In this document: positions 735 through 57,605 of the stretch, one piece after another
Layout: every line of letters begins with the position of its first letter
Position numbering within the stretch: the stretch's first letter is position 1
Origin: Bacteroidota bacterium
GTDB taxonomy: Bacteria; Bacteroidota; Bacteroidia; JABEUT01
DNA: 64,000 nt
Reading direction: 5' to 3'
Assembly: GCA_013289165.1 (NCBI GenBank)
Contig: JABDAL010000005.1
Coordinates: 846 to 64,845, forward strand
Notes under the pieces: generated by a model
Seen by the model: only the letters and a program-made list of their open reading frames with translations
The model's database searches: none
What the model was told of the DNA's origin: nothing
Translations under genes and position numbers: made by a program

Positions 735-1913
735 ATGGGTTGGAACCCCATACTATCCACTAAATACAATAGTATGAACTTATCAGAACTATCTGAACGA
801 TTTAACACGCATGATAAATGCGTAGAGCATTTAGAAAAAATCCGTTGGGGCTTTAAGCCTAAGCCCGAATGTCCCTACTGTGGTTCGGATAGTATCTATG
901 TCCGGGGAAGAAAACGAAAATTCAGCAAACAAAGAACCGCCCATATTTATAAAACACCCCGCTATTCCTGTAATAAATGCCACAGGGATTTTACAGTATT
1001 AACCGAAACCATATTCGAGGCTTCTAAAATGCCGTTACAGAAATGGTTTCAGGTCATCGCCCTGATGCTAAACAATCCTAACGGGGTATCGGCAATGAAT
1101 ATTCACATAAACGTTGGTATAACATACCGGACTGCCTGGTATTGCGGTATGAGAATCCGGTGCGCCATGCTTGACCAGCCTGATATGCTTGAAGGGGTGG
1201 TTGAAATGGATGAATCTTATTTTGGAGGCCGTAAGCGCCACCGTCCTGCTTATGCACAGGCATATTTGGGGTATAAAGGAGTGAAGGTGGATGAGTGGGG
1301 TAAGGTAAGTTATAAACGTGGCAGAGGTACGGATAAAGTGAAGGTGGTGGGAGTTGTATCACGGGGTAAGAACGGCAAAATAGGTAAGGTAGCTCTAAAG
1401 GTAGAAAATGACCGGCTGACCGGTGAAACTATGCTTAAGATACTGAAGAAATATGTGAATATAGACAGGAAGAAAACTAAGGTAATGACGGATGAGTTCA
1501 GGGGATACAATGTATTTGATAAGCACCTGCTCCATTATACGGTTAACCACATGAGTAAGGAATATGTACGGCATTTGAAGGGCATTAAAGGCGGCATACA
1601 TACCGGGACTATTGATGCGGTATGGAATATTATCAAAAGTGGAATAAAAGGGCAGTACAGAGTGTTAAGCCGGAAATACCTTCCCTTCTATTTAGCCGAA
1701 GCTGCGTATAAGTACAATCGCAGGGATAAGAAAAGAACCAATGCTCCTTTCAATGAAACTATTGCCAATGCGGTGTTGGAGGAAAAATGCGAGGTTAACT
1801 ATAAACCAAAGAAACATCCTGCACTGCTTGCGTATGGACGTAAAGAGAAGAAAGAAACAAAACGAAAGAGGCATGAGCGTGTTTCCGTTCCAGTAAAAAG
1901 AAAACGAAAATAA
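735..1913 (+). CDS. IS1595-family DDE transposase (N-terminal zinc ribbon plus ISXO2-like catalytic domain). The likely true start is ATG 774.
   Basis: CPYCGS...YSCNKCHRDFTVLTETIFEASKMPLQKWF...GITYRTAWYCGMRIRCAM...VEMDESYFGG...VMTDEFRGY...HTGTIDAVWNIIK...YLAEAAYKYNRR matches the IS1595/ISXO2 transposase pattern. Confidence 0.85.
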   Translation: MGWNPILSTKYNSMNLSELSERFNTHDKCVEHLEKIRWGFKPKPECPYCGSDSIYVRGRKRKFSKQRTAHIYKTPRYSCNKCHRDFTVLTETIFEASKMPLQKWFQVIALMLNNPNGVSAMNIHINVGITYRTAWYCGMRIRCAMLDQPDMLEGVVEMDESYFGGRKRHRPAYAQAYLGYKGVKVDEWGKVSYKRGRGTDKVKVVGVVSRGKNGKIGKVALKVENDRLTGETMLKILKKYVNIDRKKTKVMTDEFRGYNVFDKHLLHYTVNHMSKEYVRHLKGIKGGIHTGTIDAVWNIIKSGIKGQYRVLSRKYLPFYLAEAAYKYNRRDKKRTNAPFNETIANAVLEEKCEVNYKPKKHPALLAYGRKEKKETKRKRHERVSVPVKRKRK

Positions 1914-2824: not shown

Positions 2825-3595
2825 TTATTTTCTTCCAAACACATACCCTATGCCGAACGTTGCGTTTTCTAAGGTGAATTTCTGCCTGTAAGTATATGGT
2901 ACACTCACTGTATTTCCATAATTTGTATTGATTTGTGTTAAGGTCGGGGTAAATGACGGATTGGCTGATAGGTAATCATAATCCAACCGTAAACAGAAAT
3001 GATGGGAAACGTTCCAGCGCAACCCGATTCCAATATCAAAAGCAAAAGCAGTACTATTACTGGAACTCTGATTGAAGTTCGTGACTGTATCTACATTATT
3101 ATCTGTTACAGTATAGTTTATGGCGGGATAACTGGCAAACATAAACCCACCCATAAATCTATAATCAAAAACGAAATTATGTATTGGTATTGTACCATAT
3201 AGTCCGATTAATGCAGTTTCACCATGATAGCCACCTGAATTAATAACTTCTACATCATAACCTGGACTATTGGCAACAAAATTATTCGAGTATGACTGTA
3301 TATCATAGCCATTGCTGAAATTATCAAATTTTAAAGCTATTACAAAATTGGAATGATTGATAGGAATACCTGCCGATATATCAATGATGGAGCCGGATTG
3401 AGCGTAGCCGCTTGCCGTCGAATTACTGGTAGAACCATAATCCCCCAATGGCATAGCTGAACCGAAGCCAAGAGCTATGAACCCCGTCGTCGGGTTATCA
3501 GATACCGGTGCAGGTGGTGGGGTATTTTGTGCTTGTGAACTGCATTGAAACAGTAAAAACAGTGAGAGGGATAAAAATGTAGTTTTCATGGGCAT
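2825..3595 (-). CDS. outer-membrane beta-barrel (porin-family-like) protein. The likely start is the second Met at 3589.
   Basis: Signal peptide, alternating aromatic/hydrophilic beta-strand pattern, Gly/Asn/Ser/Tyr-rich, C-terminal ...ATFGIGYVFGRK. Confidence 0.55.
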   Translation of the reverse strand: MPMKTTFLSLSLFLLFQCSSQAQNTPPPAPVSDNPTTGFIALGFGSAMPLGDYGSTSNSTASGYAQSGSIIDISAGIPINHSNFVIALKFDNFSNGYDIQSYSNNFVANSPGYDVEVINSGGYHGETALIGLYGTIPIHNFVFDYRFMGGFMFASYPAINYTVTDNNVDTVTNFNQSSSNSTAFAFDIGIGLRWNVSHHFCLRLDYDYLSANPSFTPTLTQINTNYGNTVSVPYTYRQKFTLENATFGIGYVFGRK

Positions 3596-3840
3596 TGTTT
3601 TTGTTTCCCCAATGTCCCGAACAGGGGGTTATTTGTAAAAAAATCAGCGTGGGACATTTATCTTATCGCATCTGAGGTACTTAGACAGACCTAATTTACA
3701 AATAAGTAAAGCCCACGCTTTGACGTGAGCGTATAACTTATCCTTGTAAATTGCCGGAGATTGTCTAAGTTTCCAGAAGCAAGAAAGCTAACGCTGATAT
3801 GTTAGTTAATTCTTTGTATTTATATCATTCATCTGTATTT
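3596..3840 (-). ncRNA. candidate structured 5' leader / cis-regulatory RNA, copy 1 (paralog of 39576-39822)
   Basis: About 75-80 % identical to copy 2, while the adjacent proteins are barely alignable. Helices H1, H3 and H4 show compensatory changes between copies. The minus strand is inferred only from the conserved upstream -7 box. Confidence 0.5.
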
Positions 3841-3847
3841 TGAGATA

Positions 3848-3855
3848 CAAATATA
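3848..3855 (-). promoter_or_regulatory. putative Bacteroidota -7 promoter box TATATTTG (TAnnTTTG)
   Basis: The complement of CAAATATA lies inside a 17-nt block, ACAAATATAGAAATATT, that is identical in both copies. It sits exactly 42 nt from the CTAAC..GTTAG hairpin in both. Confidence 0.4.
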
Positions 3856-4121
3856 GAAATATTGTTAATATGTCGGCTAAACAACAACCTTCTGAATATC
3901 TGTATTGTTAATAATAATCTATTGAGCATGTTTTCTAACTAAGGTAGGAATTAAGGTAGAAGTTTAATGATATTAACAATAAAATATTATTTTACTTTGG
4001 GTATAATTCGCAGGAATTGTACTTATATTTGAAGCCATATATTTTATATGGGACATGGGTATTATTTTTTCATCTGATAAAATTCCGTTTCTTTGGGTTA
4101 TAAATTCAAAACCCAAATACT

Positions 4122-4688
4122 ATGGAAGACAAAAAGAAATTCTGGATAAACATAATGGTGGTTGTTACATCGGCCATCCTAACCGCATTCGCTACGGTGT
4201 TTAGTAATGAGCTACATAATATATTTACTCATGCCGATATATGGGCTGATATTTTTGTGGTAACACTTCGAATTATTCTCTTAATGGTTTTAGTATGGGC
4301 ATTAGTGAATGTAATCACTTTTAAAAAGCTGGCTGCATTATCAGCACAAAATAATTGCGCGAAGGAACTTAAAGAACTGGAAGAAGTATTTGAGGATTAT
4401 AAGAAAAAAAACGATGAAACGTTACGGCAGCTCATAAGCGGAGAAACTACGTTGAAAGGAGTATTAGACGTTAGGGAGGATGTTTATAAAGTAATGAATG
4501 GTAAATTCACGGATTTGGAAGGCAGGTTAAAAGACGAGTTCTATTTTATCCGGCTTAAGTCAAGATTTCATACTGCCGGCGGTTTAGACTGGAATTATCA
4601 AAATGAGCACGAAAATCCCAATATGAAAAATATTTATTCGGATGATGAAAAAATACAAATCAGAGACCACAAAGCATGGAAATTTTAA
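4122..4688 (+). CDS. small membrane protein (188 aa; two N-terminal TM helices plus a coiled-coil-like tail)
   Basis: Hydrophobic segments INIMVVVTSAILTAFATVF and VVTLRIILLMVLVWALVNVITF, with a charged C-terminal half. Flanked by the cassette repeat. Confidence 0.5.
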   Translation: MEDKKKFWINIMVVVTSAILTAFATVFSNELHNIFTHADIWADIFVVTLRIILLMVLVWALVNVITFKKLAALSAQNNCAKELKELEEVFEDYKKKNDETLRQLISGETTLKGVLDVREDVYKVMNGKFTDLEGRLKDEFYFIRLKSRFHTAGGLDWNYQNEHENPNMKNIYSDDEKIQIRDHKAWKF

Positions 4689-4693
4689 AAATT

Positions 4694-4735
4694 AAATGCC
4701 GTTATTTCCTATGAAAACCGTCAAAATTCCGTTTC
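4694..4735 (+). repeat. 42-nt inter-cassette direct repeat, copy 2
   Basis: AAATGCCGTTATTTCCTATGAAAACCGTCAAAATTCCGTTTC matches 5233-5274 at 40/42 positions. The 3' 13 nt, AAAATTCCGTTTC, also occur at 4069-4081. Confidence 0.85.
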
Positions 4736-4765
4736 TTTGGGGTGTAAATTATACACCTAAACATC

Positions 4766-5233
4766 ATGAAAAAAACATGGAAGCAAGTAGCAATAGGAGT
4801 TGTTAGCTCTTTAATAGCATCTGTTATATGGAATCAAATATTATCCCCAACCCCTTTAAAAATAGCTGATATGACGATTGGGACTATCTTACATTTTATG
4901 CTTGTTAATTTTATCCCAATGATTTTTATGACTATCTCTATTATTGCACTTATACGTGCTAACTATCTAAAAAGCATAATGCTACCGAATATTAAATTGA
5001 TTGAAGCGAAATATGGTATTCCCAATACAACAAGCGTTACTGATGTGACACAGCTAATCCAAGATGAAATAAGTGCAGGACATTATACATTATCGGCAGC
5101 TAATTATATACTTTGCGGTAAACAAGACCCTGCACCCGGAGTCCGCGATAAAGTCCTCATCATAAAATACAAACTTGGAGGGAGAGAAAAAACCGTTATA
5201 AAAAAGGAAGAAGAATCAATTTCACTTTACTAA
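4766..5233 (+). CDS. small membrane protein (155 aa; N-terminal TM helices plus a soluble C-terminal domain)
   Basis: TM segments VAIGVVSSLIASVIW and GTILHFMLVNFIPMIFMTISIIALI. The C-terminal motif AKYG...DVT...QDPAPGVRDKVLIIKYKLGG is present. Confidence 0.5.
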   Translation: MKKTWKQVAIGVVSSLIASVIWNQILSPTPLKIADMTIGTILHFMLVNFIPMIFMTISIIALIRANYLKSIMLPNIKLIEAKYGIPNTTSVTDVTQLIQDEISAGHYTLSAANYILCGKQDPAPGVRDKVLIIKYKLGGREKTVIKKEEESISLY

Positions 5234-5274
5234 AATGCCGTTATTTCCTATGAAAACTGTGAAAATTCCGTTTC
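5233..5274 (+). repeat. 42-nt inter-cassette direct repeat, copy 3 (no ORF follows)
   Basis: 40/42 identical to 4694-4735. Confidence 0.85.
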
Positions 5275-11506: not shown

Positions 11507-11512
11507 TTAATA

Positions 11513-12611
11513 ATGATTACATACGACCAGATTAAGGAAGTGAAGGAGCGCTTTGATGTGCTGAGGGGGCATCTTTGACATAGAAAAGAGGTTAACGAAG
11601 ATAGTCGAACAAGAATCTATTACACAGGAACCCAACTTTTGGAATGATCCTAAAAAAGCAGAACAGGTTTTAAAGCAAATAAAGGGGCTTAAAACCTGGA
11701 CAGAAGCATTTGCGAACTTGCAGATGAGTGTAGATGATATGTTGACCATGTATGACTTTTTTAAGGAAGAAGGCGCTACTGAACAAGAGATGGACACAGA
11801 GTACAACAAAACTCTGAAAATATTACAGGAACTTGAATTTAGAAATATGTTAGGCTCTCCGGAAGACCATTTGGATGCGGTGATGGAAATTAATTCAGGG
11901 GCAGGTGGAACCGAAAGCCAGGATTGGACATATATGCTTATGCGAATGTATATTATGTGGGCTGAAAAGCATGGGTATAAAGTAAAAGAACTGGATAAAC
12001 AAGAGGGTGAAACAGCAGGCCTCAAATCTATAACACTGGAAATTGAAGGGGAATATGCTTTTGGCTATCTGAAGGGGGAAAATGGGGTACATCGATTGAT
12101 TCGCATATCCCCATTTGATTCTAATGCGCGCCGACATACTTCCTTTGCCGGAGTATATGTATATCCCTTGATTGACGACAGTATAGAAATTGAAATTAGC
12201 CAGGGAGATATTGAGTGGGAAACATTTCGTTCAGGAGGAAAAGGCGGACAAAATGTAAACAAAGTAGAAACGGCAGTACGCTTATATCACAAGCCTTCCG
12301 GAATTATTATTAAAAACCAGGAAAGCCGCTCGCAGCTTCAAAATAAAGAAACAGCTTTAAAGATGTTGAAATCGCAGCTTTATGAAAGAGAGCTCCGTAA
12401 GAAAATGGAAGCCGTTTCAGCCATTGAAAGCAGCAAAAAATCAATAGAATGGGGCTCACAAATACGCAATTATGTAATGCACCCGTATAAGTTAGTTAAA
12501 GACCTTCGTACGGACTATGAAACCTCGGATGTGCAAGCAGTAATGGATGGAGAATTAGACGATTTTATTAAAAGCTACCTAATGGAATTTGGAGGCGGGA
12601 AAAAGGGGTGA
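11513..12611 (+). CDS. prfB: peptide chain release factor 2, requires a programmed +1 frameshift at CTT TGA C (11573-11579)
   Basis: Frame 0 gives [21 protein letters not shown] then TGA. The +1 frame continues DIEKRL...[12 protein letters not shown]... into ORF 11718-12611, which carries SPFDS and [13 protein letters not shown] (GGQ). AGGGGG lies upstream of the slip site. Confidence 0.92.
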
Positions 12612-22300: not shown

Positions 22301-22568
22301 TTTTTTAGGTTTTTAAAAGTTATTTTATTCTATACGTATCGTTTCAAAGATAGAATATTTTTCCATAACTTTGGCTTTATCTATTTGTTAAATCAAACTT
22401 AACAACTTCGTAATATCATTTTGAGGAAAACCGCAGACAAAAGAATACCTGAAATATGATTTTTACAGATTCTGCGAAGGTTATTGAGATAGGTCTCGTC
22501 TAATTATTCAAAATGTCCATAAATAAAGTGTTATTTAACACTTCAAAGGGCAACCGAAGTGGTCATTG

Positions 22569-22636
22569 AGTGGTTAATTGTTATATGCACGTAAGCGGGG
22601 GTAGCCGTTCAGGGGAAGGCGCCTCCGCTGAAATGC
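22569..22636. repeat. 68-nt hairpin-containing intergenic repeat, copy A
   Basis: AGTGGTTAATTGTTATATGCACGTAAGCGGGGGTAGCC..GGCGCCTCCGCTGAAATGC is near-identical to 23884-23950. Confidence 0.85.
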
Positions 22637-22681: not shown

Positions 22682-23794
22682 TTACAAGTAACTAAGCCAT
22701 CTTTTTTCAGGATGTGCCGACTTATATTTTCCATACCAAACACATGGAAAATAAAGAACAAGGACGACTCCGAACCAAACAAGGTAAACAGCCCATAAAT
22801 GAAACTTGTTGGTGGTTCCAGTAAAAAAGGCTGCACAATGAATTAGGTAAAGATGAAGTATATAGTAGAACATAGGCACCTTGCCCACATTAACAAGAAT
22901 TTTCACCAATACATTATCCATACTTTCTAATAAATAAAGACACAAGATGGCTGGTCCCAGGGTCATTAAAGCAAATAATAAAGATACCGGGTATTTATTG
23001 CAATTAATAAAGGAAAGTATAGTGTAACGGGTTCTTATCTGGTACTCCCAGGGATGGGGGTCTCCATATAGGTTAGTATATCTTATTAATATAAACACAG
23101 CAATACAAGAAAGTCCGGTCCATAATATAGCTTTCTTTCTTTTTGACAACTCCGTCCCGGGTGCAAAAACCTTGCCGAAAGTGTATCCAAGGGAAATTAA
23201 GCCCAGGTAAGGCAAAATAGGATATAAGACTATTACTTTTATAGCAGAACCCAGGTTAAGAACCCCTTCCACGTGCAGTAAAGTCCATATATCATTCAGG
23301 CCGGTATTGTCAGCAAAATGAACATTGTCAGTTAAATTGTGCAGGAGAATAATGGCAAGCCCGGCTACTAAAATTACCATATAGGGCAATCTTGATATAA
23401 ACGAGAGAAATACCATACTGACACCAATTGCCCATATTACCTGTAAGATGACGGCATTATTTCTATTGGCAAAAAGCCACGCAAAATGTACAACCGTAAG
23501 CTCAAGGAGAATAAGCCATAAGCCACGTGTAAAAAGGAACTTGCTTAATTCGTTTTTGGTATATTTGAGCCCATACAGATATGCCGATATCCCGGTAAGA
23601 AAAATAAAGGTGGGTGCACAAAAATGGGTTATCCACCGGGTAAGAAACAAATCAGTAGGGGAATAAAGCAAATTGAGGGGGTCATGAACGAAGGCATCAT
23701 AGTGAAAAAAATCCCTGGTATGGTCTAATGCCATAATTATCATTACTAAACCCCTTAAGGCATCGATAGATTGGATACGAGATGACTTCATCAA
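22682..23794 (-). CDS. DUF1624 / HGSNAT-like acyltransferase-family membrane protein
   Basis: N-terminal RIQSIDALRGLVMIIMALDH motif and a polytopic membrane body. Confidence 0.75.
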   Translation of the reverse strand: MMKSSRIQSIDALRGLVMIIMALDHTRDFFHYDAFVHDPLNLLYSPTDLFLTRWITHFCAPTFIFLTGISAYLYGLKYTKNELSKFLFTRGLWLILLELTVVHFAWLFANRNNAVILQVIWAIGVSMVFLSFISRLPYMVILVAGLAIILLHNLTDNVHFADNTGLNDIWTLLHVEGVLNLGSAIKVIVLYPILPYLGLISLGYTFGKVFAPGTELSKRKKAILWTGLSCIAVFILIRYTNLYGDPHPWEYQIRTRYTILSFINCNKYPVSLLFALMTLGPAILCLYLLESMDNVLVKILVNVGKVPMFYYILHLYLIHCAAFFTGTTNKFHLWAVYLVWFGVVLVLYFPCVWYGKYKSAHPEKRWLSYL

Positions 23795-23883
23795 TCAAAT
23801 ATATTCGCTTCAAAATTATTTTTTTTCTTTGCCATTTAAACCATTTAATTTATCTGCGCTCTAAGACTGTAAAATGGTTATTT

Positions 23884-23950
23884 AGTGGTTAATTGTTATA
23901 TGCACGTAAGCGGAGGTAGCCAATAGGGGAAGGCTCCTCCGCTGAAATGC
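23884..23950. repeat. 68-nt hairpin-containing intergenic repeat, copy B
   Basis: See copy A. The stem is AGCGGAGG / CCTCCGCT. Confidence 0.85.
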
Positions 23951-23963
23951 TATAAAAGCCACA

Positions 23964-25055
23964 TTAAATGAATTTCTCTCCTTTCCGGGACTTTACTTCA
24001 TTAACAAAATTACGAATCTGCTGCTCATCCTCCTTTTTACATATGAGCAATATATCTTCCGATTCCACTACTATATAGTCTTCGAGGCCTTCTATTACGA
24101 CAAGCTTATTTTTGGGAACGTGTACAATACACTTCTCTGATTGGAATAGTAACACATTTTTACCAACCACAGCGTTTTTATTCTTATCCTTTTCCATCTG
24201 CTGGTAAAGAGAACCCCAGGTGCCTAAATCAGACCACCCAATAGCCGAGCTACGCACATACACATTAGAAGCTTTCTCCATCACAGCATAATCAATAGAA
24301 ATATTTTTACACTGGCTATAAATTTTTGCAACTTCCACGGCTTCTTTATCAGTGTAATAGTATTTTTTGCCTGCCTTAAATAAATCAGCAATCTCCGGTG
24401 CATGTGTTTCTAGGGCTTTGATGATGCTTTGAACACTCCATACAAAAATCCCCGAATTCCAAAGAAAATCTCCACTTTGAAGAAAAAACTGAGCCATTTC
24501 CAAATCAGGCTTTTCGGTAAATGTTTTCACCTTTTTAATCCTTGGGTCTTTTTCCTTAACAGGAGAGTCTTTATATTGAATATAACCGTAGCCGGTATCA
24601 GGCCATAGGGGACGTATACCAATGGTAATCAAGCAATCTTCCGATGCGGCTTTTTCATAACATGCTTTAAGAGCCTTAATAAACGTCTTATCTTTCTTAA
24701 TGAGATGGTCCGACGGGGCAACAAGTACTAACGCCTTGGGATCTTTCAATGCAATTTTATAGGAGGCATAGGCAACACAGGGAGCAGTATTTTTCCGTGC
24801 CGGTTCACATAAAATATTATCGTCCGGGACATCGGGTAGTTGTTGCTTTATCAAGTCTTTGTAAGACTCATGCGTTACAATAAATACATTTTCCTTCGGT
24901 ATCAATAGCGATAGCCGCTGATAGGTATCCTGGATAAGTGTAATGCCTTTCCCTAAAATATCAATAAACTGCTTCGGATGGGTTGTGCGGCTCATCGGCC
25001 AAAACCGACTGCCAACTCCCCCCGCCATGATTATACAGTATTGATGCTTATTCAT
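23964..25055 (-). CDS. manC: mannose-1-phosphate guanylyltransferase
   Basis: IIMAGGVGSRFWPMSR...PKQF, plus nucleotidyl-transferase and C-terminal beta-helix-like regions. Confidence 0.85.
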   Translation of the reverse strand: MNKHQYCIIMAGGVGSRFWPMSRTTHPKQFIDILGKGITLIQDTYQRLSLLIPKENVFIVTHESYKDLIKQQLPDVPDDNILCEPARKNTAPCVAYASYKIALKDPKALVLVAPSDHLIKKDKTFIKALKACYEKAASEDCLITIGIRPLWPDTGYGYIQYKDSPVKEKDPRIKKVKTFTEKPDLEMAQFFLQSGDFLWNSGIFVWSVQSIIKALETHAPEIADLFKAGKKYYYTDKEAVEVAKIYSQCKNISIDYAVMEKASNVYVRSSAIGWSDLGTWGSLYQQMEKDKNKNAVVGKNVLLFQSEKCIVHVPKNKLVVIEGLEDYIVVESEDILLICKKEDEQQIRNFVNEVKSRKGEKFI

Positions 25056-52732: not shown

Positions 52733-55700
52733 TTAGTATTGAAGTATTACGGTACCGTTACCGGCAGGAGCTCCACCTGTTGTATTAATTGGATTTGCTC
52801 CGTTATTTATGGAACCTCCTCCTCCTCCTCCGGCATCATTAATACCTGTACCGCCACCACTATAACCACCACCACCACCGGCAGTTCCACGGTAACAGAA
52901 TGTTCCGCCACCGCCGCCGCCGTATCCACCGGCACCACCAACTTCGGTACCACTGGTACAACCAGCACCAGGAGTAGAACCATTCAGGTAAGAAAAGCCA
53001 GGACCACCACCACTAGGACTTCCATCAAGGCCTCCATTAGTCGTATAACCACCTCCAGGGCCACCGGTACCACTTCCATTCGGCTCTCCGGAGCTTCCCC
53101 CGTTTCCACCAGTTCCACCGGCACCACTATTATCATAGGAATTTTGACCATTTGTCAAACTGTTACCCATAGAATTGGCAATTGTACCAACCGGGCCCGT
53201 ATCCCTTCTTCCGCCGCCGCCGCCGGCAATAATTAATATATTATTGTTATTCAATACATACGAACCTCCACCGCCGCCACCGGCTGAAGTAGTGTTTGGT
53301 GTACCGACTCCCGCTTTTCCAACTAAAATTGTCAGCACTTCGCCCGGTGTAACCGTAAATGTACCTATCATTTGCGCACCATATCCACCAATATATTGAC
53401 CGTTATTAACACTCCCACCTTGGCCTCCGTTGGCGGTTATTGTCATTGATGAAATTCCACAACCTACCGTAAATGTTTGTATTGAACCGGTAGCTGAAAA
53501 GGTTGTTGTGGTATGTATCAAATTGCACACGCTTGAGACAACAGTTAAACAAGAAGGCGAACCACTGCAACCATTATTAGAAGCTGTTACACATATATTG
53601 GTTGTGCCTGCTGTTGCTCCAAAAGTTACCGTTGCTGTTCCGGCAGCCTGAGATGTTACTATTCCAACATTTGTATTCGATGATGTCCAGCTATAACTAT
53701 ATCCTGCAACAACAGGTATGGTATAGGTTTGACTAGTACTAATAAGGGGTGAAACCGATCCTACAGGAGTTGCCGGTGTTCCAGCAGGTGCACCTACCCT
53801 TACTATATACGTTGAATACCCGCTTAAGCAACTGGTTAGTCCACTGTCTGCTACAGATATTGTATATGTTGTAGGAGTAGCTGCAAAAGTTGCCGTTGCG
53901 GTCGTTGTAAACGTAGGGGACGACAACGTAGTTCCTGCTACTGAAGGGCTGATGCTCCAAATATATTTGTTCGCTCCGGCTACCGGTGAACAGGTATACG
54001 TTTGGGCTGATGCTGCTGCGCAGAACTGTTGAGGGCCTCCTATGTTTGATGGAGCTGCAGGCGGAGTACATCCACAAACCATGCTCGTCCACGCTCCGGC
54101 ATATAACTCTAAACAGTTTACACTCGTATTAAATACTACCAATCCATTGGGTGGATTTGGTAGCGCATTCATTTGTGCTGTTGACATCCTCGGGAACAAT
54201 ACCCCGCCCGTACTCGATGTTACATCTATTGCGGCCGACCCATTCGGGCTATTGGTTCCTATTCCTATTTGACCAGGATTGCCTGCATTTCCACTATTCT
54301 CTACTGACAAATAAGTATTCCCCGCTCCTCCATTGCTTATCATAAATTCGCCTGTGCCTACCTGCGCTCCTGTCCCTAAATCTACATTCAGGTTAAAGTT
54401 TGTTTGAGCTATCAATGTATTTTGAATCAACGGGCCTCCTAATTGTACTACTCCTGCATTGAAAGTCAACCCATTGTTTGCAGTCCCTGCCGAACCCCAT
54501 TGAGGCGCTACGCCGGCACCTTGCGACACTAATATCTGACCCGATACACCCGGATTATAAACCGCTCCATAATAAGGCATTAACGCTCCATTAAATTCAT
54601 AACCGGTAACTGAGTGATTCCCGAATACCATCGTATTGCTTGCTCCGGCCACTGCTCCATTTCCTATCGCCGTTACATTCGTTGCTGTTGCTACACTCGC
54701 TCCAGCTCCATAACCTATGGCCGTATTGTACGAACTTGTCATGTTTGATAATGCACTATCTCCTATGGCCACATTGCCCGATCCGGCTGTATTTGCATAC
54801 AATGCTGAATATCCTATCCCTATGTTGCGGCCTCCCGTCGTGTTCGAATATAACGCATAGTAACCCATTGCATTGTTATACCCTCCACTGGTGTTCGTAT
54901 ACAACGCATCATACCCTATCGCATTGTTATGTACACCACTCAGGTTATAATACATAGCATTTGTACCCATTACATTATTATAGGAACCGCTTCCAAAACC
55001 ACTCCCATTATATAATGAAAAAGCACCTATTGCATTGTTATACGAACCGCTGTAGTTTTCATACATCGCATAATAGCCCATCGCATTATTGTACCCTCCT
55101 GTATAGTTATACGCCATCGCAAAGTAACCAACCGCATTATTGTACGATCCCGTATTCCCGCTTATTCCATATAACGCATAATAACCCATCGAGTTATTAT
55201 ACGATCCTCCGCTATTTGTATACTGGGAATAATAACCTATCGCATTATCGTTGCTACCTCCAGCTATATAACCAGCCATGTAACCCATATCATTATTATA
55301 CGAATAGCCACTATTCGTATACCCCGCTTCATACCCTATCGCATTATTATACGATGCACCTCCTGAATTATTATACTGCGCATAATACCCGAATGCATTA
55401 TTATACGATCCCGTTGTATTCGTATACCCTGCTTCGTACCCTATCGCATTATTATAAGACCCTGTCGTATTGCCATACATCGCAGCATAACCCACCGCAT
55501 CATTATACGCTCCCGTCGTATTCCCATACATCGCATTTGCTCCTACTGCCGCATTATACGATCCACTCGTATTCGAATACATTGCATCATACCCTAAACC
55601 CATATTATACGCTCCTGTGGTATTACTGTACAGCGCACTATTTCCTATCCCTACGTTCCATGCTCCCGTCGTATTCTTATACAAAGGCTCATACCCTAGT

Positions 55701-57247
55701 CCCACATTCCCCGCTCCGCTAAGGTTGCTGTTCAAGGCTCCATAACCTAAACCCACGCCAGCTACACCCGTTGTGTTTGATGATAATACTTTCGAACCTA
55801 TGGCCGTATTATAATAACCTGTTGTATTAGAATTTAATGCACTGTCCGCTATCCCTATATTATAAGAACCGGTCGTTACTGCCCCCATAGCCATATAACC
55901 GCCTCCTACATTATACGATCCTATCGTCGCATTCTGCAAGGTTAAATAACCTACTCCTATATTTCCAGTTCCACTCGTATTGCTCCCTAAGGTTCCATAT
56001 CCCAAGGCTGTATTGCTTCCCCCATTGTCGCTCTTTAACGCTCCGCTTCCCACACCTACATCATTGCTCCCCGTCGTAACCGTAGACACACTATTATACC
56101 CTAAGCCGGTATTGTTCGCTCCTGATGTTAAAGGGCCTACGTTGCTTCCTGACAAATAACCTATAAACGTATTGTCGCGAACTTCATCAATACGCCCTGC
56201 CTTATTACCTTTTATCCCAAAGTTCAACGGTGTTGCATCCGTCGTACCCAGGAAATTTGTCCCATCTATGATTCCTCCATTGCCTGTTATAATCCATGGC
56301 GTTCCCGGAGTGATTCCTCCTCCCCAATCGGTTACTACATACCAGTTCGTCCCATTGCTCTGAAGCATCATCGAACCTCCTACCAAAGATAAGGTCGCAT
56401 TCGCTTTCGAGCCGCTATAGATGCTTCCGCTCGCTGCCATAATCGTCACCGCATTTGTCGTCACTACCGCGGGAGCATACAAGACGGTATAATATCTCCG
56501 CATATTTGTCGGGCCTGCCGCAGGCAAGGTTACCGTAAACGTTGCCGCATTCGGATCTACTAACACTGTATTATAAGTGTTATCTAAGGTCGTATTCCCC
56601 GTCAAAGCCACAGCCGATATCTGCGCTCCTACTGACCCGTTTATATCTAAGCTGCTTACAGGGGTCCCTTCATTGATTCCCGTGAAGCCCGTATTATTCC
56701 CTATCTCTACTATCCCGCTCGCTTTCGCGCCGCTTCCTATATTTACTAAACCCGATCCTGTGTTATTCAGGTTCGCTGCACCTGTACTCGTTACAGCTCC
56801 CAATGTGCTCAATCCCACTACATTCAAGGTCCCTCCTATTATTCCCGTATCGTCTATGTTGAAGTTCGCGCCTGCCTGCACCGTCTTCTGGTTCAATATA
56901 TATGTTCCCAGCGGAGTGGCTGAATTATACAGATACACCCACTGTTTTCCACTCCAATAGTAAAATCCTGCTCCATAACCTCCCGCCGTTACCGTCGGGC
57001 TATTCGTGTTCCACACTATCAAACCCGCAGAAGGCGCACTCACCGGTGTGGACGTAGTTACATTCACGATATCTACACTCGTTAACAACATCCCCAAGGT
57101 GCTGTTCGATGGATCGCTTAAATCCAGTATAGTTGATGCATTTCCAGGATTTCCTGAACTGTTTACCGCTACGTTTTGTGAATAAATCGCAGGGGATATT
57201 CCCACAAGAAGCGCTGCTATGGCGCATTTTACGTAAAATTTGTTCAT
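52733..57247 (-). CDS. giant secreted repeat protein (1504 aa): signal peptide, about 40 tail-fibre/adhesin-like N.A.GY.A.Y.NT.G repeats, Ig/PKD-like modules, C-terminal glycine-rich (ALK/LTK GRD-like) domain
   Basis: N-terminus MNKFYVKCAIAALLVGISPAIYSQ. Repeat region about 54640-56110. C-terminus ..GEVLTILVGKAGVG..SAGGGGGGSYVLNNNNILIIAGGGGGRR..GGGYSGGG.. Confidence 0.8.
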   Translation of the reverse strand: MNKFYVKCAIAALLVGISPAIYSQNVAVNSSGNPGNASTILDLSDPSNSTLGMLLTSVDIVNVTTSTPVSAPSAGLIVWNTNSPTVTAGGYGAGFYYWSGKQWVYLYNSATPLGTYILNQKTVQAGANFNIDDTGIIGGTLNVVGLSTLGAVTSTGAANLNNTGSGLVNIGSGAKASGIVEIGNNTGFTGINEGTPVSSLDINGSVGAQISAVALTGNTTLDNTYNTVLVDPNAATFTVTLPAAGPTNMRRYYTVLYAPAVVTTNAVTIMAASGSIYSGSKANATLSLVGGSMMLQSNGTNWYVVTDWGGGITPGTPWIITGNGGIIDGTNFLGTTDATPLNFGIKGNKAGRIDEVRDNTFIGYLSGSNVGPLTSGANNTGLGYNSVSTVTTGSNDVGVGSGALKSDNGGSNTALGYGTLGSNTSGTGNIGVGYLTLQNATIGSYNVGGGYMAMGAVTTGSYNIGIADSALNSNTTGYYNTAIGSKVLSSNTTGVAGVGLGYGALNSNLSGAGNVGLGYEPLYKNTTGAWNVGIGNSALYSNTTGAYNMGLGYDAMYSNTSGSYNAAVGANAMYGNTTGAYNDAVGYAAMYGNTTGSYNNAIGYEAGYTNTTGSYNNAFGYYAQYNNSGGASYNNAIGYEAGYTNSGYSYNNDMGYMAGYIAGGSNDNAIGYYSQYTNSGGSYNNSMGYYALYGISGNTGSYNNAVGYFAMAYNYTGGYNNAMGYYAMYENYSGSYNNAIGAFSLYNGSGFGSGSYNNVMGTNAMYYNLSGVHNNAIGYDALYTNTSGGYNNAMGYYALYSNTTGGRNIGIGYSALYANTAGSGNVAIGDSALSNMTSSYNTAIGYGAGASVATATNVTAIGNGAVAGASNTMVFGNHSVTGYEFNGALMPYYGAVYNPGVSGQILVSQGAGVAPQWGSAGTANNGLTFNAGVVQLGGPLIQNTLIAQTNFNLNVDLGTGAQVGTGEFMISNGGAGNTYLSVENSGNAGNPGQIGIGTNSPNGSAAIDVTSSTGGVLFPRMSTAQMNALPNPPNGLVVFNTSVNCLELYAGAWTSMVCGCTPPAAPSNIGGPQQFCAAASAQTYTCSPVAGANKYIWSISPSVAGTTLSSPTFTTTATATFAATPTTYTISVADSGLTSCLSGYSTYIVRVGAPAGTPATPVGSVSPLISTSQTYTIPVVAGYSYSWTSSNTNVGIVTSQAAGTATVTFGATAGTTNICVTASNNGCSGSPSCLTVVSSVCNLIHTTTTFSATGSIQTFTVGCGISSMTITANGGQGGSVNNGQYIGGYGAQMIGTFTVTPGEVLTILVGKAGVGTPNTTSAGGGGGGSYVLNNNNILIIAGGGGGRRDTGPVGTIANSMGNSLTNGQNSYDNSGAGGTGGNGGSSGEPNGSGTGGPGGGYTTNGGLDGSPSGGGPGFSYLNGSTPGAGCTSGTEVGGAGGYGGGGGGTFCYRGTAGGGGGYSGGGTGINDAGGGGGGSINNGANPINTTGGAPAGNGTVILQY

Positions 57248-57531: not shown

Positions 57532-57605
57532 AGCCTCGCAGGGGACTCGAACCCCCGACCTGCTGATTACGAATCAGCTGCTCTAGCCAGCTGAGCTAAC
57601 GAGGC
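57532..57605 (-). tRNA. tRNA-Thr (anticodon CGU)
   Basis: The reverse complement GCCTCGTTAGCTCAGCTGGCTAGAGCAGCTGATTCGTAATCAGCAGGTCGGGGGTTCGAGTCCCCTGCGAGGCT folds as a cloverleaf with anticodon loop TTCGTAA and T-loop GTTCGAGTC. No encoded CCA. Confidence 0.9.

Follow-up and report, generated by a model that had tools for sequence, protein, structure and literature searches.

The locus considered here raises the question of why two non-coding blocks in one Bacteroidota chromosome segment closely resemble each other in front of genes whose proteins do not. The segment is a 64,000-nt stretch of contig JABDAL010000005.1 (assembly GCA_013289165.1), called the window below, and the blocks lie at positions 3596-3863 (copy 1, c1) and 39576-39832 (copy 2, c2). 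A preliminary description, made from the sequence alone, took them for a structured cis-regulatory RNA upstream of beta-barrel genes. The interpretation that we favour, and consider probable though by no means certain, is a previously undescribed family of cis-acting 5' leader RNAs, which have their own promoter, lie on the strand of the downstream gene and toggle between an ON and an OFF fold. Judged by its sequence context, the family is a leader of about 215 nt in front of exported envelope-protein genes. The evidence that this RNA family is real and previously undescribed, and that its architecture is switch-like, is convincing; the kind of regulator that it represents is already known.

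Both blocks are non-coding and lie on the same strand, 36 kb apart, each directly 5' of a minus-strand gene encoding a signal peptide. Their alignment gives 80-82% identity (82% is the mean column identity), in keeping with the 75-80% estimated at the outset, and the proteins behind them, then called barely alignable, match each other with a BLASTP E value of 0.034. No third copy was found in the 64-kb window. On direct reading of the sequence, all helices of the preliminary description are located where it placed them: AATGTCCC (3611-3618) and GGGACATT (3651-3658), CAGCGTGGG (3645-3653) and CCCACGCT (3712-3719), CTTAGACA (3680-3687) and TGTCTAAG (3762-3769), and CTAAC (3788-3792) and GTTAG (3801-3805), as well as the block ACAAATATAGAAATATT (3847-3863). 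The blocks had not been recognised as any Rfam family, and this holds at gathering and at permissive E-value thresholds. At gathering thresholds, the sole Rfam 15 match in the whole window is a tRNA (57532-57605); at E<=10, window positions 3400-4100 give chance-level matches only (13-18 bits against thresholds of 37-100). A protein-coding origin of the blocks was rejected: no open reading frame (ORF) is shared on either strand, the indels are not multiples of three, and the substitutions are paired across helices.

Six further copies were found, which gives a family set of eight distinct sequences (c1, c2, L003, L017, L025, L033, L035 and L040), all from metagenomes of one poorly known, uncultured Bacteroidota group. 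Five of them (c1, c2, L003, L017 and L025) are close relatives. L003, the copy 1 ortholog in a Bacteroidetes metagenome-assembled genome, was found with DNA patterns taken from the conserved blocks and is identical in sequence to L011, L012, L021 and L027; L017 and L025 come from the same metagenome DNA-pattern scan. The much more diverged L033 and L035 were found through relatives of the copy 2 protein, on the contigs coding for them; the copy 2 protein orthologs P0005 (60% identity) and P0006 (41-43%) are likewise preceded by the leader. L040 (IMGVR_UViG_3300033076_001012) is on an 89-kb contig listed as viral in IMG/VR and was found in a scan with the family-wide invariant blocks, in which one of 20 matches was true. 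A search for relatives with a covariance model had been suggested at the start. The model, built from the first five sequences, scores 53-255 bits on all eight, including 200.6 bits on copy 2 and 222 bits on L025, and finds no copy beyond the eight in about 0.8 Mb of fetched DNA. A genome scan with GATAAGATAAATGNCCCAC returned one true match (L003) and six by chance, and the GATAAGATAAATGNCCCAC block turned out to be variable in the family. Three viral scans with blocks common to both window copies gave no match, and viral scans with other gap ranges gave chance matches only. The sequence upstream of P0003, a distant relative of the copy 1 protein (locus L010), does not carry the leader. Rfam 15 gives no match on the leaders of L033, L035 and L025 at E<=0.1.

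The eight sequences support a conserved RNA structure. Minus-strand folding of the two window copies is more stable than that of shuffled sequences (z = -4.0 for copy 1 and -3.2 for copy 2). In the eight-sequence alignment, 57 pairs are predicted and 94.2% of 448 cells are paired, and compensatory change (both sides changed in at least one sequence) is found in 30 of the 57 pairs. The covariation score is 0.565, compared with 0.212 ± 0.020 for shuffled alignments, and none of 500 shuffles reaches it. When the partners are slid by 1-3 columns as a control, pairing falls to 35-43%. A MAFFT alignment of five sequences already contains 16 compensatory pairs, and the same long hairpin is obtained when L033, L035 and L040 are each folded singly. 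The compensatory differences first noticed between the two window copies are real and are confirmed by the six further sequences; adding homologs, the check named for them, leaves the covariation in place.

The elements of the leader, from the promoter to the start codon, are as follows, first for copy 1 and then for copy 2.

3848..3855, minus strand: -7 box TATATTTG of copy 1, within the 17-nt block common to copy 2
3820..3828, minus strand: mini-ORF AUG AUA UAA, between promoter and P1
3788..3805, minus strand: P1 hairpin CUAAC / GUUAG, whose loop holds most of the P0 5' strand
3791..3798, minus strand: P0 5' strand AUCAGCGU, which pairs with ACGCUGAU (3643-3650)
3662..3787, minus strand: P2, a long hairpin of about 44 pairs in five stacked helices
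3711..3730, minus strand: P2 tip hairpin GCUCACGU-CAAA-GCGUGGGC, its 3' arm invariant and complementary to CCCACGCU
3643..3653, minus strand: switching sequence CCCACGCUGAU, both P0 3' strand and partner of the tip arm, sharing CCC with the P3 5' arm
3637..3642, minus strand: U-tract directly 3' of P0, terminator-like
3611..3658, minus strand: P3, AAUGUCCC (3658-3651) with GGGACAUU (3618-3611), the proposed anti-sequestrator
3590..3618, minus strand: sequestrator, GGG(A)CAUUG (3618-3610) with CAAUGCCC (3597-3590)
39825..39832, minus strand: -7 box TATATTTG of copy 2
39587..39791, minus strand: copy 2 leader, with P1 at 39764-39782, P2 at 39640-39763 and the tip at 39686-39705
39767-39772 with 39623-39628, minus strand: copy 2 P0; 39630-39637 with 39594-39601, minus strand: copy 2 P3
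39573..39597, minus strand: copy 2 sequestrator, CAUUGGG (39597-39591) with CCCAAUG (39579-39573), start codon 39575-39573 included

The TAnnTTTG -7 box pointed out in the preliminary description is present at the homologous place in all copies and would serve as the promoter; it is separated from the first conserved block by 55-70 nt in c1, c2, L003, L017 and L025 and by 10-30 nt in L033, L035 and L040. Between promoter and P1, a mini-ORF of the form AUG-(0 or 1 codon)-UAA is found in six of the eight copies (window 3820-3828 and 39793-39801, minus strand, L003, L017, L025 and L035), in the versions AUG AUA UAA, AUG GAG UAA, AUG GCA UAA, AUG UAA, AUG GUA UAA and AUG AAA UAA. Its ATG and TAA are the sole invariant triplets of an otherwise variable stretch, the middle codon differs, and its stop lies 7-15 nt 5' of P1. 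Absence from L033 and L040 rules it out as a universal feature, and any role for it is speculative. All five close copies have the same P1 sequence; in its place L035 has AAGGA/UCCUU. P2 helices 2-6 are 83-98% paired, with both-side changes in 27 of 44 pairs (RNAalifold, pair counts), and P3 (helix 7) is 96% paired, with three such pairs. Nearly all P2 stem positions have changed among the eight sequences, unlike three blocks that are invariant in all of them: AGCGU (P1 loop and stem), AGCGUGGG (tip 3' arm) and CCCACGCUGA (just 3' of P2). In copy 1, P3 is followed by an A-rich linker and then the start codon; CAAUGCCC contains the first AUG (3595-3593) and abuts the second (3589-3587).

The alignment also shows which strand is folded. 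G-U cells number 35 and A-C cells 3, and the folded strand is therefore that of the downstream gene, which fixes in the gene sense the minus-strand transcription proposed beforehand. Consistent with this, the covariance model scores 200-255 bits on the gene strand and 18-27 bits on the opposite one. The same asymmetry points to a single-stranded transcript of one strand and speaks against a DNA-level element, that is, an IS1595-type transposon end or an invertible or recombination site formed by the long inverted repeat, which we regard as very improbable. What suggests such an element is that IS1595-family transposase genes adjoin several loci (window 735-1913, plus strand; L011 3945-4631; L012 1-1026; L033 2-91; L035 740-1705; and a 9.2-kb JGI 3300050821 contig), converging with the operon end at copy 1 and L003 and diverging in L033 and L035. 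In L033, L035 and the JGI contig, the distance from the start of the transposase gene is 30-37 nt to an upstream TACATTTG box and about 70-90 nt to the leader -7 box, and the L035 transposase gene, together with one further gene, lies between the arms of a 27-nt inverted repeat. However, the arms of that repeat resemble two promoters facing outward, and the gene that one of them serves, coding for a small basic protein, is syntenic with window 40451-40585. In addition, no transposase was found near c2, L017 or L040, no enclosing inverted repeats were found in the window, and the transposases have diverged along with their loci (61% amino acid identity between copy 1 and L003) and are not recent copies. 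The window copies are neither inverted around a transposase unit nor near-identical, as transposon terminal repeats would be. It had been envisaged that homologs might occur only as transposon termini; those found are gene-linked leaders. Two variants of the idea were also rejected: transposon cargo, for which there are no enclosing inverted repeats, and an insertion sequence end that replaces the 5' part of the leader in L033 and L035, since the L035 homology reaches the mini-ORF and -7 box and the left repeat arm precedes an ordinary small gene syntenic with the window.

Conservation is concentrated in the leader. A comparison of the window with the L003 locus gives identities of 93% for the structured block, 68% for the coding sequence, 56% for the next gene and 46% for the region upstream of the promoter, with about 1.8 synonymous substitutions per site (dS) in the coding sequence. 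The likeness of the leaders also crosses the orthology of the proteins: the L033 (60%) and L035 (41%) proteins are orthologs of the copy 2 protein, while the copy 2 leader is 70% identical to that of copy 1 and 42-44% identical to those of L033 and L035. The simplest reading of these sequences is that the cassette of promoter and leader was exchanged or converted between the two loci inside the window genome. Such an apparent exchange between unrelated genes would make the cassette a self-contained regulatory module. Just upstream of the copy 2 promoter lies a strong terminator-like hairpin with a T-run (window 39868-39886, minus strand), of which copy 1 has a degenerate version; the duplicated unit thus seems to include an upstream insulator.

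We next consider how the conserved strands can pair with each other. The preliminary description envisaged either a pseudoknot or two mutually exclusive folds, and the computed alternative pairings and predicted folds support this and add two elements to those listed in it: a helix, P0, that closes P2 and is followed by a U-rich tail, and a sequestrator of the start codon. P0, formed by CCCACGCUGAU and AUCAGCGU at the base of P2, is possible in all eight copies with 6-9 bp, and a C-to-U change in L033 and L035 retains its pair as G-U. It draws on the GU in P1 and on the greater part of that hairpin's loop, and it encloses the P3 5' arm; it therefore excludes both P1 and P3. A U-rich tail follows P0 in every copy (AUUUUUUU, AUUUUUUA, AUUAUUUA, ACUAUUUA, AUUUUAUA), weakly in c2 and L017. 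The leader thus has the stem and the U-rich tract 5' of the coding sequence that are expected of an intrinsic-terminator attenuator, with the atypical property that the stem closes a 125-nt hairpin.

The invariant arm of the P2 tip has a second possible partner. The pairing of AGCGUGGG with CCCACGCU, already seen in the preliminary description, amounts to 8 bp in copy 1 and grows to 9-11 bp through lineage-specific nucleotides in c2, L017, L033, L035 and L040. The tip 5' arm varies only by changes that preserve G-U or G-C with the fixed 3' arm, and the pattern fits a 3' arm that is a strand with two partners. Contact of the tip with the base of an intact, straight P2 is sterically doubtful, as P2 would have to bend at its bulges. 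The tip hairpin was also flagged as terminator-like; that it works as a terminator is unlikely, because the covarying stems 3' of the tip require the full-length RNA.

In all seven gene-bearing copies, the start-codon region has its complement in the P3 3' arm; in L025, where the gene is lost, this complementarity is absent. The sequestrator pairs are ACAUUGG with CCAAUGU in L003, GGACAUU with AAUGUCC in L017 and GGCUUGUG with CACAAGCC in L033; L035 has a 14-bp helix that includes its GUG start, and L040 a 13-bp helix that reaches the AU of AUG. Four sequence solutions are thus found: the CAUUG:CAAUG types, GGCUUGUG:CACAAGCC, GGGGCGG:CCGCCUC and, in L040, AUAGGGUCUUGGU:ACCAAACUCUAU. The duplex has a predicted energy of -11.6 kcal/mol in both window copies, matched by 3 of 2000 shuffles in copy 1 and by 8 of 2000 in copy 2. 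Across c1, c2, L003, L017, L033 and L035, shuffled start regions match the sequestrator in 1-8 of 2000 cases, compared with 1031 of 2000 in L025; in L040 the figure is 153 of 2000 in the narrow test window, yet the 13-bp helix is present in its minimum-energy fold. The minimum-energy folds of copy 1 and copy 2 also contain the sequestrator.

The predicted energies of the two arrangements are nearly equal in most copies. The gap between the P3-forced and the sequestrator-forced fold is predicted to be 0.6 kcal/mol in c1, 0.8 in c2, 5.0 in L003, 0.2 in L017 and 5.4 in L033. P0 and the sequestrator form together in c1, c2, L003 and L017, and P1 and P3 form together in c1, L003 and L017.

These pairings suggest how the leader could act. 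In the ON state (fold A), P1, P2 and P3 would form and the start-codon region would stay open; in the OFF state (fold B), P0 would displace P1 and free the P3 3' arm, which would then pair with the start codon as the sequestrator while P2 is retained. Fold B possibly adds transcription termination at the U-tract. Bacteroidota ribosomes do not use Shine-Dalgarno pairing and rely on an unstructured start region; the sequestrator should therefore block translation, and masking of the start region is a plausible way to shut off the gene. The 8-bp, GC-rich P0 far exceeds the 5-bp, AU-rich P1 in strength, and OFF would therefore be the default unless P1 is stabilised or AGCGU is masked. The trigger could be temperature or a small ligand, a ribosome that occupies the mini-ORF, or else a protein or an RNA by which AGCGU is masked. 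A bolder version, which we put forward tentatively and think less probable than its opposite, is a new class of riboregulator of the Shine-Dalgarno-less Bacteroidota, a portable cassette of promoter and leader in which the P2 rod senses the signal. In such a class, AGCGUGGG, AGCGU and CCCACGCUGA would be in three-way competition, the cassette would set termination and start-codon access for any envelope gene behind it, and the mini-ORF of two or three codons could tie the decision to ribosome loading.

Several observations weigh against a toggling leader. P0 and the tip pairings are invariant, so that covariation lends them no support, and the larger alignments were fitted to the covariance model, which favours the structure of the model. 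The sample comprises just eight distinct sequences, five of them close kin. L033 has no clear P1, and when the sequestrator is forced in L033 and L035, local hairpins form around CCCACGCUGA in place of P0. In L035, the OFF (sequestered) fold is 14 kcal/mol more stable than the ON fold, and by these predicted energies this copy may not toggle. The family-wide invariant nucleotides lie in the switching strands, and the P2 internal loops differ between subtypes; invariance in switching helices and not in the P2 loops is unlike typical metabolite aptamers. Retention of the RNA in L017 and L025, considered below, is also expected of a free-standing RNA. Finally, both the switching itself and the transcription start site are inferred, from predicted folds and from the position of the -7 box, respectively.

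Some of the evidence would also fit a static leader, in which the P2 duplex does not switch and either stabilises the mRNA or is a site of processing by RNase III. Examples of such elements are the leaders of ompA, rnc and pnp in E. coli. P2 forms an almost unbroken duplex of about 44 bp with freely covarying stems, as if shape alone counted, and its internal loops are not conserved family-wide. A static duplex leaves unexplained the three invariant, mutually complementary blocks, the exclusivity among P0, P1, P3 and the sequestrator, the near-equal fold energies and the 93% identity at a dS of about 1.8. We therefore hold this explanation to be unlikely.

A free-standing, trans-acting RNA of about 200 nt would end at the hairpin of P0 and P2 and the U-tract, with the gene link incidental or due to read-through. 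It would account for the leader's own -7 box, for the U-rich tail behind P0 in all copies and for conservation far beyond that of the coding sequence. It would also account for two loci where the RNA has outlived its gene: in L025 the structure is intact and the gene is gone (AUG UAA), the next gene there being served by a DUF805b leader motif, and in L017 the structure is intact in front of a mere 45-aa remnant ORF. On the other hand, P3 spans the U-tract, and its 3' arm fits the start region in the seven gene-linked copies by differing sequences; this complementarity is gone exactly where the gene is gone. Conservation also extends to the start codon, and no trans target or seed was found. 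Such an RNA appears improbable to us, and the cis-acting leader remains the preferred interpretation.

The leader has two features by which riboswitches are recognised, a conserved, covarying 5' untranslated region (UTR) domain on the gene strand and, in silico only, mutually exclusive helices. Like riboswitch and attenuator platforms, it is a sense-strand 5' leader with covarying helices, a switching strand with exclusive partners, a closing helix followed by a U-tract and a start codon occluded by a helix. It differs in having no identifiable ligand or sensor pocket and in its rod-like hairpin core in place of a multi-helix junction, and what its sequestrator masks is the start-codon region itself, this in a phylum whose translation does without Shine-Dalgarno pairing. 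The arrangement appears analogous to that of protein-dependent antitermination leaders, among them the BglG/SacY RAT (ribonucleic antiterminator) hairpins and the PyrR and TRAP systems: P1, small and weak, shares nucleotides with the 5' strand of P0, which is far stronger and terminator-like. The present leader, however, has no candidate binding protein nearby and no sequence similarity to these systems, and P1 is unclear in L033. The outer-membrane protein (OMP) mRNAs of Proteobacteria also have structured 5' UTRs, such as the stabilising ompA leader and RNA thermometers. By analogy, these too are long structured leaders of envelope genes in which structure would govern access to the start; the family described here is unrelated in sequence and fold, is much larger, has three invariant complementary blocks and belongs to an uncultured Bacteroidota group. 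A 6S RNA was ruled out: there is no Rfam 6S match, the largest P2 internal loops are 5-6 nt, and there are two gene-linked copies per 64 kb.

DUF805b (RF02914), like the leader, is a small Bacteroidota cis-regulatory motif before a small membrane-protein or lipoprotein gene, and one such motif adjoins L025. It lies at L025 802-834 (plus strand; 40.8 bits against a threshold of 35.6), between the orphaned leader and a 72-aa lipoprotein gene. DUF805b differs in being a 35-nt hairpin motif with no similarity to the leader, and it is merely in a neighbouring intergenic stretch.

Work on Bacteroidota dCas12f-sigma systems has described conserved non-coding RNAs (ncRNAs) of unknown role that immediately precede outer-membrane transport genes, as well as dCas12f guide RNAs of 85-105 nt that have a 3' guide and adjoin dcas12f (PMC13472631). 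This raises the question of whether the leader belongs to a dCas12f and extracytoplasmic function (ECF) sigma system, as a guide RNA or as the helix-turn-helix (hth)-associated ncRNA of dCas12f-sigmaE target sites, which precede outer-membrane transport operons; we give this almost no weight. The link is suggested by the likeness to the ncRNAs upstream of outer-membrane transport genes (PMC13472631) and by one ECF-type sigma gene in the window (43171-43770). With the hth-associated ncRNAs (PMC13472631) the leader has in common its occurrence in Bacteroidota, its promoter-proximal position upstream of outer-membrane-related genes and the unknown role. In contrast to them, and by published description, it has a standard TAnnTTTG box, and its loci carry neither dCas12f nor an rpoE-dcas12f operon nor an HTH gene; the search for Cas12f/TnpB-like and HTH genes was negative around both copies and in the rest of the window. 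The leader is 215 nt long with its own -7 box and is set apart from the guide RNAs, again by published description only.

Few leader RNAs have been described for Bacteroidota envelope genes, and post-transcriptional control in this phylum is very little known. The family offers a compact test case with clear covariation, in which start-codon access and termination are possibly switched by RNA folding alone, and it points to a signal or factor that coordinates several exported proteins. Its reach is limited to eight distinct copies from one poorly known metagenomic group.

The genes behind the window copies are listed below.

2825..3595, minus strand: copy 1 gene, 256 aa, signal peptide
2430-2804 and 1933-2433: two small signal-peptide genes after the copy 1 gene
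38889..39575, minus strand: copy 2 gene, 228 aa, signal peptide, no Pfam match
38716-38892: 58-aa membrane protein gene after the copy 2 gene

The association of the leader with beta-barrel genes proposed in the preliminary description stands for envelope signal-peptide genes but not for beta-barrels only: the downstream products are OMP-like proteins, a 198-aa membrane protein in L040 and the remnant in L017, and the gene is lost in L025. The copy 1 gene product is probably an outer-membrane beta-barrel, as suggested by a weak PF13505 match (E 3.5e-5) that is under the cut-off of the family. This weak Pfam hint is limited to the copy 1 protein; the predicted structure of the copy 2 protein has a predicted local distance difference test (pLDDT) score of 38.8, and we claim no fold for it. 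Either downstream protein has 2-3 relatives among 5.8 billion proteins, and no protein conserved as a neighbour was found across the loci. In L040 (2247-6252), the genes around the leader include several for small paralogous membrane proteins and one for a ResIII/DEAD-type helicase.

The window is an unremarkable part of a Bacteroidota chromosome, encoding LpxB, release factor 2 (RF2), TruB, TyrRS, GreA and several type IX secretion cargo proteins, with housekeeping genes between the two leader copies. Upstream of copy 1, on the opposite strand, tandem small membrane-protein genes (4122-4688 and 4766-5233) are flanked by intergenic repeats within 4079-5274 (4079-4138 and 4723-4782, 75%; 4694-4735 and 5233-5274, 95%). 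A 50-nt direct repeat, 92% identical, is present at 22557-22606 and 23872-23921, each unit just downstream of one of two consecutive minus-strand genes (22682-23794 and 23964-25055). The ORF at 52733-57247 (minus strand) is 1504 aa long and encodes a PKD-like domain; a periodic repeat of 51 nt (17 aa) occurs in it at least 14 times, at 54781-55851, and the product is likely a large surface protein. For release factor 2 (window 11507-12611), the gene is listed from a TTG at 11718 and encodes PCRF and RF-1 domains; this is probably the programmed frameshift usual for prfB, with the first part of the gene in another frame.

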